From a virus (lineage: Duplodnaviria; Caudoviricetes), in IMG/VR virus record IMGVR_UViG_3300012914_000001, positions 1 to 60,630 of that record: a stretch of DNA of 60,630 nt. One strand, given 5' to 3'. Of the stretch, positions 2,253 to 52,528 are shown piece after piece. The notes below the pieces were generated by a model, which saw nothing but the letters and a program-made list of their open reading frames with translations, searched no databases and was not told where the DNA came from. Each line of letters starts with the position of its first letter. The first letter of the stretch is position 1. The position numbers were made by a program, and so were the translations under genes.

Positions 2253-2327
2253 TTGGCCTCATAATAACACCCGTCCCGCGCACTGTCGCATCACCCGCAG
2301 GGGCTGCCGTCGATCCGTGTTGCACAC

Positions 2328-15327: not shown

Positions 15328-15370
15328 GTGCGGTCACTCCTATTGCACGGGGTGTCGCACGTCAGCGTAA

Positions 15371-15425
15371 CACACAAAAGACGGCGGGCCGTATCCTGTC
15401 GCAGTGGCAGGACACGGCCCGTCGT
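15371..15425 (-). terminator. Rho-independent terminator after major capsid
   Basis: ACGGCGGGCCGT/ACGGCCCGTCGT stem plus inner TCCTG/CAGGA; CTTTTGTGTG tail on the minus strand. Confidence 0.7.
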
Positions 15426-15451
15426 AAGTGCGGGCGCCTCGACTGTGGCGC

Positions 15452-23421: not shown

Positions 23422-23735
23422 TCGGCGGCCTCGGGCGGCGGCGCAGGAACGCCGCAGCGACAGCTCGGGTCATACCAGTTATGCACGCACTCGACCGCCG
23501 GGCCCTGCTGCTTGGCAGGCGCCGGCGGCACCTGCGGGCGCGAGGCGCGCTCGTGCGGCGGGCAGTAGTGCGCGACCCCGCCGCCGACCCGTGTCGCGTG
23601 TTGCTTGCACATGACCCGGCCGCAGCTGCCGTTCACCCCTTGGCGTTTCACGGGGTAATCGCAGAGATAATATCCGGGCTGCTGACACGTCTGACACGGC
23701 AGACGCTTGCCGCCCTTGCCGAGCGTTTCGGTCAT
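23418..23735 (-). CDS. Zinc-finger protein
   Basis: CQTC..LCDYP..CGRVMCKQHA..YCPPH. Confidence 0.6.
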   Translation of the reverse strand: MTETLGKGGKRLPCQTCQQPGYYLCDYPVKRQGVNGSCGRVMCKQHATRVGGGVAHYCPPHERASRPQVPPAPAKQQGPAVECVHNWYDPSCRCGVPAPPPEAAE

Positions 23736-24319
23736 GGGTCGCTGCTCGTCGGTGTGCAGTCGATGCTCGGGCTCGAGTCGACCGAGCAGCTCGGGCTCGA
23801 GTCGGGCGTCGACTGCGGTGCGTCCCATGAACCCGAGGCGCCCGCGCCGCCCGACGCGCCGCCGTGTCCCTCGAACGAGGGCGAGGAAAGCGACACGGGT
23901 TCGGCGAACAGCACCGGGCCCGGGTCGGCGGGCATCGACGGAACGCTGAACCCCTCGTCGGCGCGGCGCTGCTCGACCTTTTCTGCCCTGCGCGCAGCGA
24001 CCCTCGTGTCGGTCCGCAGCGCGGGGTGCGCGACGCCGACGGGTGCCCATTCGCGGCCCGGTGCGCCGCCGAGGCCGAGCCGCACCGGCGGCGCGAACGA
24101 GGCCGGATTGTTCGGCGTCGGCAGGGGCGGCGGGGGTGGCCACTCGGGCCGCTGCCGCGGCAGCACGACGCGCTCGGTCCGGTCCGTCGCGTCGTAATCG
24201 TACGCCGCAGCGAGCCGGCGCCGCTTGCGGCGGCTGATGAACACGGCGCGAATGATGACCCCTGCCGCAGCCGCGACGGCGATGCAGGCGAGGGCGATGC
24301 CGATAGTTTCGATGTTCAT
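23732..24319 (-). CDS. Membrane-anchored protein with low-complexity tail
   Basis: N-terminal TM followed by RRKRRR; FEGHGGASGGAGASGSW. Confidence 0.6.
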   Translation of the reverse strand: MNIETIGIALACIAVAAAAGVIIRAVFISRRKRRRLAAAYDYDATDRTERVVLPRQRPEWPPPPPLPTPNNPASFAPPVRLGLGGAPGREWAPVGVAHPALRTDTRVAARRAEKVEQRRADEGFSVPSMPADPGPVLFAEPVSLSSPSFEGHGGASGGAGASGSWDAPQSTPDSSPSCSVDSSPSIDCTPTSSDP

Positions 24320-46972: not shown

Positions 46973-47694
46973 CCGGGCGTTTCAGCAGTAACGTTCCACG
47001 CGAAACGCGCGCCTGCGCATGGTGTCGCCGGCAGCTCTCGGCGACGGCCCCCGGGTGGCAGCGGTTCTGCGACAAACGCTGCCGTCAGACCGAATGGCGT
47101 GCGCGGCAGGTGTCCCTGATGGAGGGGCGCGACGGGCAGCCTCGCCGGGTCGGGTACGCCGATCCGCCGTACCCGGGCATGTCTTACCGTTGCTACGGCG
47201 ATCAGCCGAACTATGCCGGCGAGGTCGATCATGCCGAGCTCGTCGAGCGGCTGCGGGGTTTCGACGGGTGGGCCCTGTCGACGTCAGCCAAAACGCTGCG
47301 GCAGGTGCTGCTGCTGTGCCCGCCCGAGGCCGACGTCGCCGCTTGGGTCAAACCGATCGGGGTCAGCCGCAAAACGCGCGGGCCGCACAACACATGGGAA
47401 CCGGTGATCTACGTGCCGGCGCGCCTGCGGCAGCCCGGCATGCGGGACTGGATCGCGGCGATGCCCGCCCGCGGCGGCGACTCGGACCTGCTCGGGCGCA
47501 AACCGCTCGCGTTCTGCCGGTGGCTGTTCGAGCTGCTCGGCGTCGCGCCGTGCGACACGTTCGTCGACATGTTCCCGGGCAGCGAGGTCGTCACCCGGGC
47601 GTATGCCGCCGCGTCGCTGCAGGCCTCGGGCGACGAGGTGTCTCGACGCGTTCTCGGCGACGGGTCGATCGAGTCGTTCAGTTCGAGGGTTTGA
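46969..47694 (+). CDS. Amino-DNA methyltransferase-like protein (N6A/N4C, beta-type motif order) with N-terminal zinc finger
   Basis: YADPPY, AWVKP, WEPVI, KP..FC.W, VDMFPGS; N-terminal CAWC..FCDKRCR. Confidence 0.75.
   Translation: MTGRFSSNVPRETRACAWCRRQLSATAPGWQRFCDKRCRQTEWRARQVSLMEGRDGQPRRVGYADPPYPGMSYRCYGDQPNYAGEVDHAELVERLRGFDGWALSTSAKTLRQVLLLCPPEADVAAWVKPIGVSRKTRGPHNTWEPVIYVPARLRQPGMRDWIAAMPARGGDSDLLGRKPLAFCRWLFELLGVAPCDTFVDMFPGSEVVTRAYAAASLQASGDEVSRRVLGDGSIESFSSRV
46979..47007. repeat. 29-bp repeat containing parS-like site (copy 2)
   Basis: GTTTCAGCAGTAACGTTCCACGCGAAACG. Confidence 0.6.
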
Positions 47695-48124
47695 CGCCGC
47701 AGCCCTCGCGCAGCAGGGCCTCGACGTGACGCACGTCGAGGCGCCCGGCGTCGATGATTAGCTGCGCGGCGTCGAGTCGGCGCAGCTGTTCCTGCTCGCG
47801 GAACAGCCGGCGGTCGGCGCGCTCGCGCTCGAGCACGTGCCAAAAGGCGCCGCCCGTCAGCAGCAGGACGAACACGCCGGCCCATGCCGCGAGCTTGATC
47901 GTCATCGAGGCACTGCGCACCTGCTGTTTCGTGTCGGCCGCCTCGCGCAGAACGTCGAGCATGTCGGCGCTGCGCTTGTCCCATGCGTCGAGGATCGGTT
48001 TCATTTGCGTCCCGAGCTCGGTACGCACGGCGTCGCGGATCCATAGCTGCTGCGTCGAGGTCGGCGGCGGCGCGTCGTCGTCCTCGATGACGAGCTCGAG
48101 GCGGGGGTCGGTTCGGTCAGTCAT
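47678..48124 (-). CDS. Single-TM protein, last gene of the lysis region
   Basis: LAAWAGVFVLLLTGGAFW between helical segments. Confidence 0.6.
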   Translation of the reverse strand: MTDRTDPRLELVIEDDDAPPPTSTQQLWIRDAVRTELGTQMKPILDAWDKRSADMLDVLREAADTKQQVRSASMTIKLAAWAGVFVLLLTGGAFWHVLERERADRRLFREQEQLRRLDAAQLIIDAGRLDVRHVEALLREGCGVKPSN

Positions 48125-48332
48125 GTGGCTTGCCCTCGAGGGCGTCGCGCCCTGCGCGTGCGTTGCGTCTGATGCGGTCGGCGAGCTCGCGGCCGTCGAC
48201 CGCGAGCCGGCGGGTTTCGCGACGGGTGCACTCGATCGCGAGGTCGAGCTGCCCCTGCACCTCGTCGAATGGTTCCGGTGGCAGGACCGTCTGCCTCGGC
48301 GGGTCGAGCCACTCGCGCAGCCAACGCCACAT
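48117..48332 (-). CDS. Hypothetical protein (lysis region)
   Basis: MWRWLREWL..; packed between neighbours. Confidence 0.5.
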   Translation of the reverse strand: MWRWLREWLDPPRQTVLPPEPFDEVQGQLDLAIECTRRETRRLAVDGRELADRIRRNARAGRDALEGKPHD

Positions 48333-48334
48333 GT

Positions 48335-48754
48335 TCACGGCCCACCCCGCGGCCGCCGGTCGGCGACCGTCCGTTCGAGGACCTGCAGCTGCGCGAGCAG
48401 TTTCGTCAGCACGTCGTCCTGACCCCGCAGTCGTTCCGTGATCTGCCGCTTGTTCTCGGCATCGGCCTCGAGCAGCTTGGCGAGTTTCTCGACGAACTGA
48501 TCTTTCGCCGCGTTCGCTGCTCGCCGCTCGGTCCGTTCCTCCTGTCGGTCCGCTTTCTCCGAACGAACCCACAGCAGCAGCACGGCGCCGACCGTCGAGG
48601 AACCGATCAGGCTCCACAGCGCATTCAAGGGATCGCCGGTCTGCGACGTGGCTGACGTCGCGGTCGTCGCATGCTGCGCGAGGGCTAGCGCCTGCGTCGC
48701 AGCGAACGAGCCGCAGGCGCCCGCGAACGCCGCCGCCGCGAGACGAGCTTTCAC
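48335..48754 (-). CDS. Holin/antiholin-like membrane protein
   Basis: Signal-like N-terminus, TM LWSLIGSSTVGAVLLLWV, coiled coil; directly after the endolysin. Confidence 0.5.
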   Translation of the reverse strand: MKARLAAAAFAGACGSFAATQALALAQHATTATSATSQTGDPLNALWSLIGSSTVGAVLLLWVRSEKADRQEERTERRAANAAKDQFVEKLAKLLEADAENKRQITERLRGQDDVLTKLLAQLQVLERTVADRRPRGGP

Positions 48755-49215
48755 GGTCGCCCATACCGCCGCACGAACTCGCCCGCGAGCTCGACGTGCC
48801 AAGCGTCGATGAACTTTTCGTCGCCGCGCGACCGGCCGTCGCCGTCGAAATCGAGCCCGACACGGATCGGGATCCCGAGCACGATCGCCCGGGCGTCGAA
48901 TATCCCGATCAGGCGCGCGATGCGCAGGTCGTCTTTCCAAGCAGGCGCTTTCAGGTCGACGTCGTACGGCGCGACGTCGACCGCGAGCGAGAAAGGCCGA
49001 CCGTCTAGCTCGACGTTGTGCATGCTGTCGGGCCAATGCTTCGTTGACGCTTTGTCTGCGAATGCCTTTTCCTGCGCGACCTTGTCACGGAACCCGCAGA
49101 TCAGGCTGAAATCGAACTTGGCGGGAACGAACGCCGCGACGTCGTCGACGAGCACGACGAGCGGCGGCGCGAGGGTCGCTCGCACCGCGAGGCTAGCTTT
49201 CCCGAATGTGATCAC
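48751..49215 (-). CDS. Endolysin, M15-family (L-Ala-D-Glu type) peptidase
   Basis: FGKAS, DFSLICGFR...Q, SMHN...SLAVD, D..HVEL zinc-ligand motifs. Confidence 0.85.
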   Translation of the reverse strand: MITFGKASLAVRATLAPPLVVLVDDVAAFVPAKFDFSLICGFRDKVAQEKAFADKASTKHWPDSMHNVELDGRPFSLAVDVAPYDVDLKAPAWKDDLRIARLIGIFDARAIVLGIPIRVGLDFDGDGRSRGDEKFIDAWHVELAGEFVRRYGRP

Positions 49216-49682
49216 TCGGCCGCCTGCGCCTCGGGCGGCCCGGCCTCGAGCGAGGCACTCGTCACGTCGGGCACGGCGACGCCGGCTCGCTGCGCCTGAC
49301 TGATCTGCACCGACAGTAGGAGCTCGCGCATGGTGCGGGTGATGTTCTCGACGGCGCAGGTCGTCGCGATGATTCGCGCTGCGTCGGCACCCGAGCGTTC
49401 GGCGAGCGCCTGCGCGAGGCCCTGACAGGCGAGCTGCACGTGCTCGTCGACGTGCCGCAGGATCGGTTTCACCCGTGCCGACGGTCCGCAGCCGAACGAC
49501 GTAAACAGTGCGAACGCGCACGCTGCGATGACGACCGTCGACAGCGCGGTCACGGTCACGACCCCTGCGCGCAGAAATGGTTGCTTCAGATTTGGCGGAC
49601 CGAACACTGCTGTAAAGACGAGCGCGGCGCCCGCGCCGAGCCCGAGGACGCCGAGCACGATTAGGAGTGTTTCGAGGTTCAT
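49212..49682 (-). CDS. Two-TM membrane protein with lipobox-like Cys (lysis accessory?)
   Basis: Two hydrophobic helices then FGC|GP; AAAGG SD and TGCTACTCT -10 upstream. Confidence 0.55.
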   Translation of the reverse strand: MNLETLLIVLGVLGLGAGAALVFTAVFGPPNLKQPFLRAGVVTVTALSTVVIAACAFALFTSFGCGPSARVKPILRHVDEHVQLACQGLAQALAERSGADAARIIATTCAVENITRTMRELLLSVQISQAQRAGVAVPDVTSASLEAGPPEAQAAE

Positions 49683-49716
49683 GTGCTTACCTTTCGACCT
49701 GCGCAGAGTAGCAGTG

Positions 49717-49854
49717 TCAGGGTCCGTCGCCCATCGCCTCGCCGTCGAGCACTGCGCCCTCGACGACATGGGCCTCGCATTCCACCCCTGAAACAACCGG
49801 CTCGGCGTCGACGACGACGCCCTCGATGACGGCGGCAGACAGCTCGACCGTCAT
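49717..49854 (-). CDS. Small acidic Val-rich protein
   Basis: 45 aa; ATGA coupling. Confidence 0.45.
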   Translation of the reverse strand: MTVELSAAVIEGVVVDAEPVVSGVECEAHVVEGAVLDGEAMGDGP

Positions 49855-50174
49855 ACGCCGTCGCGCAATATCTCGACCGGGCGCCAACGGGTCCGCAGCA
49901 CCGCGCCGCCGACGAGCGTGATATCGGCGCGCACGCGGGCCGTGCCCTCGGCGCCGGCGGGAATGTCGTCCTCGTCGTGCGAGCGCGTCAGCGTCGCGCT
50001 CGTCTCGGTCGCAGCGCTGACCGTCGCAGGCCACGTCGCGGCGCTGCCGTTCGCAAACCGCACGAGCAGGCTCGCGGTGTCGATCGTCGACAGGTCGAAC
50101 TCGCCGCCCGAGCTCGTCACCTCGAACACCGTTCGAACCGGCGCTGCGGCGCCCACATAAAGCGATCCGGACAT
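49851..50174 (-). CDS. Beta-sandwich virion accessory protein (BppU-N-like)
   Basis: LYVG..FEV..FDLS....LLVR..G..ATW pattern. Confidence 0.55.
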   Translation of the reverse strand: MSGSLYVGAAAPVRTVFEVTSSGGEFDLSTIDTASLLVRFANGSAATWPATVSAATETSATLTRSHDEDDIPAGAEGTARVRADITLVGGAVLRTRWRPVEILRDGV

Positions 50175-50187
50175 GATGGTTAAACGA

Positions 50188-50298
50188 GTCGGCCTCGCTA
50201 CAGAGAACACTCGGGCAAGCACTCCCGAGTGCTCGACTCGCTGACGGCAACGTGCCGACATACACGGCGACGGCAGCGAGCCCTGCGTCGAGACCGAC
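50188..50298 (-). ncRNA. Candidate structured RNA (~111 nt, three-way junction)
   Basis: Extended -10 TGGTATAGT at 50314-50306; terminal stem and two arms fold with G-U pairs only on the minus strand. Confidence 0.55.
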
Positions 50299-50344
50299 CG
50301 CGTCGACTATACCAGGGTTCGCGCGAGTCGGTAGCGCTGCGCGA

Positions 50345-50854
50345 TCAGCTGCCGAGCAGCGTGCGCATTTCGTTCAGCGCGCCTGCCCATCCGTCGTTGT
50401 CGTACTGCGTCGTTTCCGTCGCGACGACGGCGCGGCATCCGTTGACGTCGCGCACGGCGATCATGCGCTCGTGCACGAGCTGCGGCCGCGGTCCGGTTCG
50501 TCCGTCGGGCAGCGTGCCCATGCCGCCGTTGACGACGCACCGGACGATCCATGAATGCCCGCCCTCGCTCGGCAGCGTCACGGCGACGGTGCCGTCGACG
50601 GATATCGGCGACACTGCCGGGCCCGACGTCGCGCCGACGAGCGTCAGCGCCGGCGCACCGGGACTGCAGCGCGGCGGGTTCGCGGCGATCCCGAGCTCGG
50701 GATCGAACCCGTCGGCGCTGAATACTTGGAACAGCACGGTCGACACCCCCGCCGGCGGCAGCTGTTTCAGCCGCAGCACGAGCTCGGCGTCAGGATCGGC
50801 GTCGAACCCCTGATCGCTGCTGTCGGCGTTGATCGTAAAAAGCGCGTCTGCCAT
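50345..50854 (-). CDS. Stand-alone paralog of the N-terminal anchor domain of the adjacent fibre
   Basis: MADALFTIN.DSSD.G..WIVRCVVNGG..LVHER.IAVRD.NG..ATETTQYD.DGWAG shared with 50864-52174. Confidence 0.8.
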   Translation of the reverse strand: MADALFTINADSSDQGFDADPDAELVLRLKQLPPAGVSTVLFQVFSADGFDPELGIAANPPRCSPGAPALTLVGATSGPAVSPISVDGTVAVTLPSEGGHSWIVRCVVNGGMGTLPDGRTGPRPQLVHERMIAVRDVNGCRAVVATETTQYDNDGWAGALNEMRTLLGS

Positions 50855-50863
50855 GGGTTCCGT

Positions 50864-52174
50864 TTACAGCGGCTCGAGCTGAAAGTCGTCGATGTGGGCA
50901 AAGTGACCGAACGACGCCGTGCCGACGCACCTGACATTCGCGTAAACCGGGTTAGTCGGCGGCAGCTGCGCACCGTTGCCGAGCGCCGTCGAGTGCGTCG
51001 TCCGCAAAACGCCGCCGATATAAAACCGCCATTCGTTCGCGCTGACCCGCTCGATCTCGAGCTCTTGGAACAGCCCGGATGTCGTCGCGACACCGGTGTC
51101 TTTCGCGACCGCGACGCCGCCGCCGGTGCTCGTGTAGCTATGCCAATTGCCCGGTGCGCCTGCAGCTAGCCCGCCCGCGTAGTCATAAAAGAAACCCGCG
51201 AACACCTCGGCCTCGACAGAGAACCCAGACGCCGAGCAGAGTGCCGTCCACATTTGCCCGGCGTTATTGACGGGCGATCCAGGGGCAACGCGATAACGTA
51301 CCTTGCTCAGCCGCGACTGACCGATGCCGCTGCGACCGACGCAAATGCCGGCCATTGAACTATTGCCGACGCCCGCCGTGATGCGGACGGCGCCGATGCA
51401 GGGATCGCCGACCGGCTGATCGCAGAAACAGGTGCCCTGCCCGCTGAACTCGAAAAAGCTCCACCCTAGATCGCCGATGTTCGCCGTAAACGACGACGCA
51501 TTGATCGGCGAGGAACTCGATGCGGCGTTGCCGCCGACGAACGTGTCGCGAATGACGCTGCTGCCGCCGCCGCCTGCCGGACCCTGCGGACCCGCGGGTC
51601 CTGTCGCGCCTGTCGCGCCGGGCGCGCCGGGGGCACCGTCAGCGCCGTCAGCGCCGTCCGCACCCGCAGGGCCCTGCGGGCCCTCGATGACGGCGAACTC
51701 GCCTGCCCATCCGTCGAGGTCGTACTGCGTCGTTTCCGTCGCAATGATGGGCCGCACGCCGTTGCCGTCGCGGACCGCGATCAGCCGCTCGTGCACGAGC
51801 CGGGGGTCGAACACGACGCGCCCGTCATCGAGCGTCGCCTGCCCGCCGTTGACGACGCACCGGACGATCCAGGCGACCCGGTCGTCGGCAGGCAGCTCGA
51901 CCGTGACCTCGCCGTCGACGCTGCTCGGCGACACGTTCGGGCCCGACGTCGCGCCCTGCAGGACGAGGTCGGGCGCGCCCTTGCTCTTACGCGGCGGGTT
52001 CGACAGCGGGTCGAGCGAGGGGTCGAACGCCGCGGCGTCCCACACCTGAAACCGCACCGTCTGCACGCCGCTCGGCGGCTGCGTTTTGAGCTGCAGCACG
52101 AGCTCCTCGAGCGGGTCGGCGTCGTACCCTCGATCGCTGCTGTCGCCGTTGATCGTGAAAAGCGCGTCTGCCAT
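50864..52174 (-). CDS. Short collagen fibre with lectin/concanavalin-like head
   Basis: Anchor domain, G-X-Y run, beta-rich head (DTGVA..ELEI..RFYIGGVLRTTH). Confidence 0.75.
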   Translation of the reverse strand: MADALFTINGDSSDRGYDADPLEELVLQLKTQPPSGVQTVRFQVWDAAAFDPSLDPLSNPPRKSKGAPDLVLQGATSGPNVSPSSVDGEVTVELPADDRVAWIVRCVVNGGQATLDDGRVVFDPRLVHERLIAVRDGNGVRPIIATETTQYDLDGWAGEFAVIEGPQGPAGADGADGADGAPGAPGATGATGPAGPQGPAGGGGSSVIRDTFVGGNAASSSSPINASSFTANIGDLGWSFFEFSGQGTCFCDQPVGDPCIGAVRITAGVGNSSMAGICVGRSGIGQSRLSKVRYRVAPGSPVNNAGQMWTALCSASGFSVEAEVFAGFFYDYAGGLAAGAPGNWHSYTSTGGGVAVAKDTGVATTSGLFQELEIERVSANEWRFYIGGVLRTTHSTALGNGAQLPPTNPVYANVRCVGTASFGHFAHIDDFQLEPL

Positions 52175-52177
52175 GCG

Positions 52178-52528
52178 TCAGCCCTGTTTTAGGGGCGAGC
52201 CGTCGACCTCGATCAGCAGCGACCCAAACCATCGGTTGTGATGCGCCTCGGCGAGGCGCACGAGGTGCGGCCCGCCCTCGCGTGGAATGAACGAGATCAG
52301 CGACGGGGCGAGCCGTCGGTACACCCGGCGCTGCGCCGTCGAGGCGCCGCCCGAGCTCGTCACGGTGAACTCGAGCGGCAGCACGATCCCGGCGGGCAGA
52401 GTTTTGGAGTAATCGACCTCGATCAGGCAGGCCGCGAACGCGCGCACCGTCGGCGTCTGCTGACTCAACGTCAGCCGGATCAGATCCTGCCCATAGGTGA
52501 CCGGGCTGACCTCGTCGACGACTGCCAT
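52178..52528 (-). CDS. Hypothetical tail-region beta protein
   Basis: SFIPREGGPHLVRL Ig-like motif. Confidence 0.65.
   Translation of the reverse strand: MAVVDEVSPVTYGQDLIRLTLSQQTPTVRAFAACLIEVDYSKTLPAGIVLPLEFTVTSSGGASTAQRRVYRRLAPSLISFIPREGGPHLVRLAEAHHNRWFGSLLIEVDGSPLKQG

Follow-up and report, generated by a model that had tools for sequence, protein, structure and literature searches.

What occupies the 170-nt gap that, within the late block of this phage, has tail-fibre genes on one side and lysis genes on the other? The window, by which we mean the whole stretch of DNA that was analysed, is a complete virus record of 60,630 bp with terminal repeats and 68.7 % G+C, belonging to a myovirus whose structural genes were named by PHROG matches and whose best sheath-protein match among GenBank phages reaches 25 % identity. 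Its minus-strand genes form one long late block, which crosses the record ends and stops at 47678, facing plus-strand genes, and the element considered here fills the gap within that block. Among the contigs of four soil DNA runs that were compared, one of 299 bases, from a separate study, is identical over 50090-50388, and the contigs matched to the stretch held no variants informative for covariation. The genes that define the phage type and the upstream side of the gap are the following.

Minus strand: PHROG-matched genes for the large terminase, portal, head protease, major head protein, tail sheath, tape measure, baseplate hub and baseplate wedge
50864-52174, minus strand: tail-fibre gene with a collagen-like stretch
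50345-50854: 169-aa ORF upstream of the element

The initial annotation had read the gap as a minus-strand RNA with its own promoter and an alternative fold, acting as a free small RNA or as a conformational switch for the downstream genes. The structural core of this reading was borne out, and the conditions named as refuting it that were checked, namely, a fold no better than shuffles, no kept helices in relatives and a conserved ORF across the region, were not observed. In fact, the minus strand from 50299 to 50187 (~113 nt) forms a three-way junction, made of a closing helix P1 and two arms, which RNAfold returned as minimum-energy and centroid structure alike, and all the positions that had been assigned are correct (TGGTATAGT at 50314-50306, the complementary strands GTCGGTCTCG and CGAGGCCGAC, the two arms and the ATG at 50174). 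The elements of the fold are listed below in the 5' to 3' direction of the RNA.

50289..50299, minus strand: 5' strand of P1, GGUCGGUCUCG, which pairs with 50187-50197
50298-50289 with 50197-50188, minus strand: core of P1, GTCGGTCTCG paired with CGAGGCCGAC
50235..50282, minus strand: arm P2 (arm 1), with the basal helix GGCUCGCUG/CAGCGAGUC and internal pairs
Inside 50235..50282, minus strand: tip of arm P2, the apical hairpin CGUGU/GCACG with GUCG within its loop
50205..50234, minus strand: arm P3 (arm 2), an 11-bp helix with the loop A-GUGCUU-G
50187..50204, minus strand: junction strand U-CUGU-AG, followed by the 3' strand of P1, CGAGGCCGACU
50175..50186, minus strand: single-stranded linker CGUUUAACCAUC, carrying U[UG][UA]AAC and followed by the ATG at 50174

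In addition, the CUGU of the junction strand pairs with GCAG at 50283-50286. The stability of this fold was far beyond that of shuffled sequences: the minus strand gave -76.3 kcal/mol over 50175-50314 (z -5.18) and -71.2 kcal/mol over 50175-50300 (z -6.51), with none of 200 dinucleotide shuffles as good in either case, whereas the plus strand was weaker over the same intervals (-55.6 kcal/mol, z -2.68, and -51.1 kcal/mol, z -2.67, respectively). P1 contributes 11-19 kcal/mol. It might be supposed that such a fold has no function and arises by chance in G+C-rich DNA, which folds well; indeed, when 116-nt windows were folded on both strands across the genome (n=10,086), the element ranked only 24th by raw energy. 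However, it ranked first after regression on GC, at -4.65 sd, and neighbouring, non-structured stretches of similar composition gave z values of 0.17 to 0.92.

The linker leads directly into a series of genes on the same strand, and the position that had been claimed for the element, ahead of genes leading into the lysis cassette, was confirmed.

49851..50174, minus strand: p107, a 107-aa Ig-like beta-sandwich protein by predicted structure, the first gene past the RNA
49717..49854, minus strand: acidic ORF of 45 aa, with its ATG overlapping the stop codon of p107 (ATGA) and a counterpart readable in both relatives
49212-49682, minus strand: membrane protein
About 48751-49200, minus strand: endolysin (phrog_465, E 8.7e-14)
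About 48335-48760, minus strand: coiled-coil membrane protein
47678-48124, minus strand: 148-aa protein, the last of the minus-strand operon

Holin and spanin may be among the lysis genes, as suggested by gene position and by hydrophobic or coiled-coil sequence. As for p107, no Pfam or PHROG match was obtained; its structural model is an all-beta sandwich (pLDDT 82.6), which matched in BFVD the BppU N-terminal domain as well as tail-fibre and baseplate proteins (best E 1.1e-06, with 59 matches at E <= 0.001), and gave weak Ig-like matches only among solved structures. A profile search of 1.84 billion proteins recovered 108 p107 relatives, counted as representatives, and members of this family also occur as tandem repeats in giant proteins with Ig domains of the ASH/Cep192/HYDIN type. 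The interval between p107 and the next large gene was also considered as a possible site of structured RNA and was discarded, since it holds the small ORF listed above and gave z values of 0.17 to 0.92.

Is the gap truly non-coding? In each of the three phages that carry the element, the p107 frame runs through it without a stop, giving in-frame ORFs of 136, 144 and 191 aa, and one could thus propose that p107 begins further upstream, with an N-terminal extension encoded here. Long open frames, however, occur in all six frames at 69 % G+C, and the leader shows no bias at third codon positions (GC3 0.68/0.57/0.60, against about 0.8-0.9 in genes). Furthermore, the would-be extensions have no mutual similarity, their register with respect to the conserved loops differs between the window and the relatives, and 14 of the 14 aligned p107 homologues share the same N terminus, with starts within 4 residues. 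We therefore give the extension hardly any credence: the region of the element is non-coding, with no conserved ORF across it. An upstream leader peptide, ending at the UAA or UGA of the motif that precedes the AUG, was rejected as well, because the frames are inconsistent and have no common start codon.

The RNA had further been described as unlike tRNA, 5S or SRP RNA, in agreement with what we observed. A scan of the whole window with the 4227 models of Rfam 15 gave 0 matches at gathering thresholds. At E <= 10, the interval 49000-51500 gave 3 noise matches, the strongest of which scored 19.9 bits where 50 are required and lies on the opposite strand, and the three copies of the RNA gave one, mir-2290, at 16.1 bits against 50; overall, no Rfam family, 5S included, was found at threshold or at E < 0.9. 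ARAGORN called 0 tRNA or tmRNA genes in the window, and full-text searching of the literature found no description of such an element, which is not proof of absence.

Evidence of conservation comes from relatives, for which the probes were peptide patterns, derived from the p107 sequence or from alignments (of p107, the N-terminal domain of the tail fibre or the 148-aa protein). The same 3 loci came back from all five scans of viral contigs (from 69, 21, 37, 37 and 94 pattern matches), and two of these three viral records are identical over the region read, so that two further distinct phages are available, here called L002 and L003, with p107 proteins 83 % and 67 % identical to that of the window, respectively. 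Metagenome contigs gave 1 locus from 125 pattern matches, with the same range as one of the viral-contig records, while in 185,579 prokaryote genomes no locus emerged from the 600, 15 and 35 pattern matches obtained. GenBank phages yielded no match to the DNA of the stretch and none to the p107 protein. The p107 relative P0004, sought in viral contigs, likewise returned no match. A DNA pattern for the arm-1 hairpin hit 12 viral loci, the only real one being a relative already known. Two further loci of that pattern came within E <= 0.1 (21.3 bits) and were taken for noise; the one examined is surrounded by overlapping ORFs and has no -10 motif ahead of it.

In both L002 and L003, the stretch before the p107 start folds independently into the same topology at the same place, with -77.4 kcal/mol (z -4.63) and -66.7 kcal/mol (z -4.00), respectively, and none of 200 shuffles as good in either. 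The G-U pairs of the window had been taken as a sign of a minus-strand RNA, and this holds in all three phages, where the sense fold beats the antisense one (-71.2 versus -51.1 kcal/mol in the window, -77.4 versus -71.9 in L002 and -66.7 versus -56.5 in L003). P1 measures 11, 14 and 12 bp, with the 5' strands GGUCGGUCUCG, GGUCGACCUCGCUG and UGCCCGGUCGCC in the window, L002 and L003, respectively, and the basal helix of P2 is built in the two relatives from the exact partner strands GCUUUCA/UGAAAGC and CGAGGUGC/GCAUCUCG, which differ in sequence. The loops, on the other hand, are kept while the stems drift. In particular, both relatives carry GUGCCU as the P3 hexaloop, although their stems have other sequences, which gives GUGCYU overall, and GUCG is present in the P2 loop of all three phages. 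UC(U/A)CUG on the 3' side of the junction and U[UG][UA]AAC exactly four bases before the AUG are also shared by all three. P2 and P3 stand side by side, 0-4 nt apart, and begin 17-21 nt past the inferred transcription start. The strands of the junction differ among the three copies (AC/-/U/AG, UUCUG/GUUC/CU/GC and GAU/G/A/CAA).

The RNA is 57/31/32 % identical over ungapped columns, compared to 85/73/74 % for the adjacent coding sequence, and its alignment was fitted by hand to the structure, since MAFFT gave no sensible alignment. Of the 39 consensus pairs in this hand alignment, both partners differ among the phages in 27 and a single partner in 2, 11 have no standard pair in at least one sequence, and the structure conservation index is 0.93; pair counts, index and shuffle z are all inflated by the fitting, and the independent folds of single sequences are the less biased evidence. 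As regards the relatives, then, the helices were found to be kept through sequence change, while a statistical covariation test such as R-scape is impossible with three distinct sequences. A covariance model built from the window RNA alone scored the three copies at 139/22, 31.3/16.0 and 19.5/12.0 bits (sense/antisense), although it aligned the L003 copy only partly and, in a wider search, found that copy, at 19.5 bits, among noise hits. The search for a second copy elsewhere, in the window and in the searched parts of the relatives' genomes, returned noise only, a weak result, as the genome-wide search missed true copies too.

Similarity between the phages starts at the -10 motif, and the genes upstream of it differ in each, being a truncated fibre in the window, a fibre rich in glycine in L002 and an unrelated ORF of 244 aa in L003. 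It follows that the RNA belongs to the downstream module. That the element stands exactly at the onset of similarity could also be expected of a DNA-level feature, such as an inverted-repeat recombination site or a module boundary. However, the G-U strand asymmetry recurs in all three copies, and helices that persist through a nearly complete replacement of their sequences are unlike a sequence-specific DNA site; together with the ranking after GC correction, these observations leave a DNA-level role, or no function at all, very improbable. Thus, the element is probably a conserved, unnamed, structured regulatory RNA of a rare clade of uncultured soil myoviruses.

The next question is where this RNA would begin. 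A promoter of its own had been proposed, and the part of this proposal that stands is a conserved extended -10 directly ahead of the RNA; on the other side, no -35 accompanies it and the motif by itself is at chance level.

50306..50314, minus strand: extended -10 promoter-like motif TGGTATAGT, with TGTTATAGT and TGCTATCGT in the relatives
50299, minus strand: transcription start inferred from promoter geometry, a G, seventh past the -10 hexamer, with which P1 begins

The consensus is TGnTAT(A/C)GT, preceded by C and separated from P1 by a 6-nt spacer in all three phages, and TG, T-12, A-11 and T-7, which are the bases that an extended -10 needs, are kept in all of them. The motif occurs once in the genome, where 0.53 occurrences are expected, and at least once in 40 of 100 shuffles; its weight comes from conservation in the relatives and not from this count. 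The two-hexamer promoter scan makes no call at 50306-50314, because no -35 was found with the motif. A start at the seventh or eighth base after the -10 hexamer would leave 0-1 unpaired bases before P1 in all three phages. The motif could be an active promoter directly upstream of p107 and the lysis genes.

As to where the RNA would end, no terminator-like site was found in 49000-51500, nor on the minus strand from 50300 to 47678, while a canonical hairpin plus U tract is present after the capsid gene of the same phage. After P1, the U runs measure 3, 4 and 0 bases in the three copies, and a conserved start codon follows at 11-22 nt. The absence of a terminator after P1, together with this conserved start codon, makes an mRNA leader likelier than a free small RNA. 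We hold with middling confidence that the element is the structured 5' leader (~113 nt) of an internally promoted mRNA for p107, the 45-aa protein and the lysis genes. Such an mRNA would start near 50299, at the foot of P1, from the internal extended -10 promoter, and its 5' end would consequently be buried in a G+C-rich helix of 11-14 bp. 5'-terminal helices, of which the ompA-type stabilisers are examples, protect bacterial mRNAs from 5'-end-dependent decay, and the buried end may stabilise the message in the same sense. The GUGCYU and GUCG loops may contact a protein or an RNA that tunes the production or translation of the lysis-module message, and the A/U-richer linker with U[UG][UA]AAC-N4-AUG would stay open as a landing site for the ribosome. 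No Shine-Dalgarno sequence was found in the linker before the p107 AUG, which is unremarkable, since many genes of the same phage also have no clear one. The upstream late operon has no terminator either, so that read-through RNAs carry the element internally, and protection of a 5' end is not applicable to them.

The free small RNA of the initial annotation, by comparison, would be a molecule of ~115 nt that arises at that same promoter, is freed when the linker is cleaved or when transcription terminates inefficiently after P1, and acts in trans on targets of the phage or the host through its loops. Stable small RNAs are usually built with their 5' and 3' ends brought together by a closing helix, the conservation of loops on drifting stems would suit such a role, the linker past P1 is the most A/U-rich stretch, with UUUU four bases past P1 in one relative, and a phage precedent exists in the short PR' transcript that gives rise to the 74-nt regulator StxS, in what PMC7547250 reports of it. 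None of the copies, however, ends in a hairpin plus U tract, L003 has no U run at all after P1, and the motif at a fixed 4 nt from the AUG ties the element to the downstream gene. A free small RNA is consequently less likely than a leader and not what we would expect, and the claim that the element is one is not supported.

The same can be said, more firmly, of the conformational switch. The junction is the centroid, P1 provides its 11-19 kcal/mol, and the rival pairings are unconserved or at chance level. The helix AGCGAGTCG/CGACTCGTT, which had been proposed to compete with the junction just before the ATG, is present in the window sequence and has no counterpart in either relative. Similarly, the arm-2 loop does match GGCAC of arm 1 over 5 bp, and shuffles of the arm reach such a match in 3932 of 5000 cases; loop-arm complementarity was attained in 3932, 3085 and 1074 of 5000 shuffles for the three copies, and a loop-arm pseudoknot was rejected on this ground. 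In the window, the mean unpaired probability of the start region (-14..+6) is 0.77 in a transcript that starts at 50299 and 0.35 in a read-through RNA. In the relatives, the corresponding read-through and promoter-initiated values are 0.45/0.45 and 0.38/0.41. A scheme like that of T4 gene e, in which the read-through RNA hides the start and the promoter-initiated RNA frees it, thus holds in the window only and was set aside. A riboswitch was discarded too: the nucleotides of the junction are unconserved, no terminator is present, the occlusion of the start is unconserved and the junction fold coincides with the centroid.

Read-through RNA bears on a further alternative, namely, that the element is a processing or insulating site in the late transcript, where P1, stacked on an arm, would be cut by an RNase specific for double strands, such as RNase III, so as to separate the lysis message from the tail-fibre message, and the -10-like motif would be no working promoter. 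Intergenic sites of this kind, structured and recognised by RNase III, are familiar from T7 and lambda and could serve as a precedent by analogy. With no terminator after the tail-fibre genes, read-through RNA includes the element, and in the window and L003 P1 can be extended in that RNA by pairing of the -10 region with the linker before the AUG. P1, however, has only 11-14 bp, compared to the about two turns of nearly continuous double-stranded RNA that RNase III calls for; a length of ~20 bp would require stacking on P1b/P2 or an extension in read-through RNA, and the extension is unconserved, being absent in L002, just as the occlusion of the start in such RNA is confined to the window. 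Moreover, the retention of TG, T-12, A-11 and T-7 at a fixed 6 nt from P1 would be left unexplained. We therefore consider a processing site unlikely.

Two other proposals start from the position of the fold directly past a promoter motif. According to the first, the element would be a put-like RNA, which binds the transcribing RNA polymerase and lets it resist pausing or termination through the lysis module. Two neighbouring stem-loops directly past a promoter motif, in a phage, are in keeping with it; against it, there is no downstream terminator-like site to overcome, the enclosing helix P1 is foreign to put, the junction and stem sequences are unconserved, and one copy is present per genome window searched, 2.5 kb from the operon end. 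We accordingly rate it as highly doubtful. The second proposal, bolder than the mRNA leader and one that we would not expect to prove right, is that of a new class of phage RNA, a three-way-junction "cap" on the lysis transcript, whose loops would dock host RNA polymerase, ribosome or ribonuclease. If this were true, the message would resist decay or termination, and the timing of lysis would be set by an RNA and not by a protein regulator; its way of working would be akin to that of put and of nuclease-resistant viral RNAs, to which it would be unrelated.

The position of the element at the entry to the lysis genes matters, as the timing of lysis decides burst size. Catalogues of structured phage RNAs are poor and hardly include those of uncultured soil phages. 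The present one shows what is expected of a functional RNA, namely, a fold that outlasts the turnover of its sequence, conserved loops and a fixed place between a promoter motif and a start codon. If the element controls the stability or translation of the message, it would represent a new RNA-based timing of lysis, and in that case a compact stabilising leader could be reused in expression constructs. The reach of these considerations is limited for now to three related uncultured phages.

It is useful to compare the element with systems that resemble it in one respect or another. With 5S rRNA, tRNA and Y RNA it shares a length of ~115 nt and ends joined by a closing helix, and with 5S rRNA also a three-way junction; different from these RNAs, it has no Rfam match (at E <= 10, noise aside), no ARAGORN call and no terminator that defines its 3' end. 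The put RNAs of HK022 are described in PMC9378689, as far as its account of them goes, as ~70 nt long, with two stem-loops in a V shape, putL lying just downstream of PL. Like them, the element is cis-encoded and promoter-proximal and has two adjacent stem-loops, a resemblance of layout only. The put RNAs, in that same account, have no closing helix and act on downstream terminators, whereas the element has the enclosing P1 and none is predicted downstream of it. No put-type match was returned by the Rfam scans, whose models may not include a put family.

The leader RNA of lambdoid PR', known as lambda 6S RNA and as the source of StxS, likewise offers a short non-coding segment behind a promoter, or in our case a promoter-like motif, that precedes phage lysis genes, and the account of StxS in PMC7547250 indicates that a by-product of regulation can gain a function of its own. 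The PR' leader, as presented there, ends at the intrinsic terminator tR' and depends on the Q antiterminator, whereas no terminator follows the element; moreover, PR' is lambdoid, and the element is placed distally in the late operon of a myovirus unrelated to lambdoid phages. Finally, different from the ompA-type 5' stem-loops, the element is no simple hairpin, as its 113 nt form a three-way junction in which two apical loops are conserved. In common with them, it would place a stable helix at the inferred 5' end, or at most 1 base from it, and then an open stretch for ribosome binding.

The genes around the three-way-junction RNA differ in part between the window and the third phage, in which (region L008, 10033-13036) the open reading frame (ORF) directly upstream of the RNA encodes an unrelated protein of 244 amino acids, a tblastn search of this region with the window endolysin gave no match, and p107, the Ig-like protein encoded first after the RNA, is retained together with the coiled-coil protein and the 148-aa protein. 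Taken together, these gene contents argue that the lysis module is a mosaic around a conserved RNA-p107 core. In both relatives we could also recognize counterparts, with repeated (L)VEG-type motifs, of a small ORF which follows p107 and shows no excess RNA structure (49717-49854, minus):

49717-49854, minus strand: acidic ORF of 45 aa (MTVELSAAVIEGVVVD...), the start of which overlaps the p107 stop codon in an ATGA.

Directly upstream of the RNA, the window carries a 169-aa ORF (50345-50854, minus strand) sharing 64 % identity with residues 1 to 168 of its paralogue, the adjacent 436-aa tail fibre (50864-52174, minus strand), and ending approximately where the collagen-like part of that fibre starts. 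Since L002, the relative closest in p107, encodes two full-length fibres, both with this same N-terminal domain, the 169-aa ORF seems to be what remains of a second tail fibre after loss of its distal part.

A 299-base soil-metagenome contig from another study is identical to positions 50090-50388, including the entire RNA, and another soil run contains 53 % of the words sampled from 47600-52200. On the strength of these matches, we conclude that the window phage recurs in soils.

Elsewhere in the genome, a folded site was found in the gap that follows the gene for the major head protein:

15328-15451, minus strand: 14-bp G+C hairpin, then CGUCUUUUGUGUGUU.

The folding z-score of this interval is -4.16 on the minus strand, and the opposite strand folds more strongly (z, -5.72); the hairpin with the following CGUCUUUUGUGUGUU is a terminator or attenuator of the classic type. 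The second-ranking GC-corrected folding outlier genome-wide (23725-23840, plus strand; -72.1 kcal/mol, -4.51 sd) falls among overlapping candidate ORFs on both strands. The TGNTAWNNT pattern has only four matches genome-wide, among them the following:

2261-2269, minus strand: TGTTATTAT, a TGNTAWNNT match within 1798-2269.

This match lies shortly upstream of a GAGG and an ATG at 2251, with which an ORF of about 150 aa begins; the ORF, missed by the high-GC3 gene filter, may represent a separately promoted accessory gene.

As for p107 itself, its domain occurs in tandem, in up to 21 copies, in two giant proteins recovered by the profile search (P0006 and P0014, of 2737 and 2778 aa), which also contain Ig domains of the ASH/Cep192/HYDIN type.
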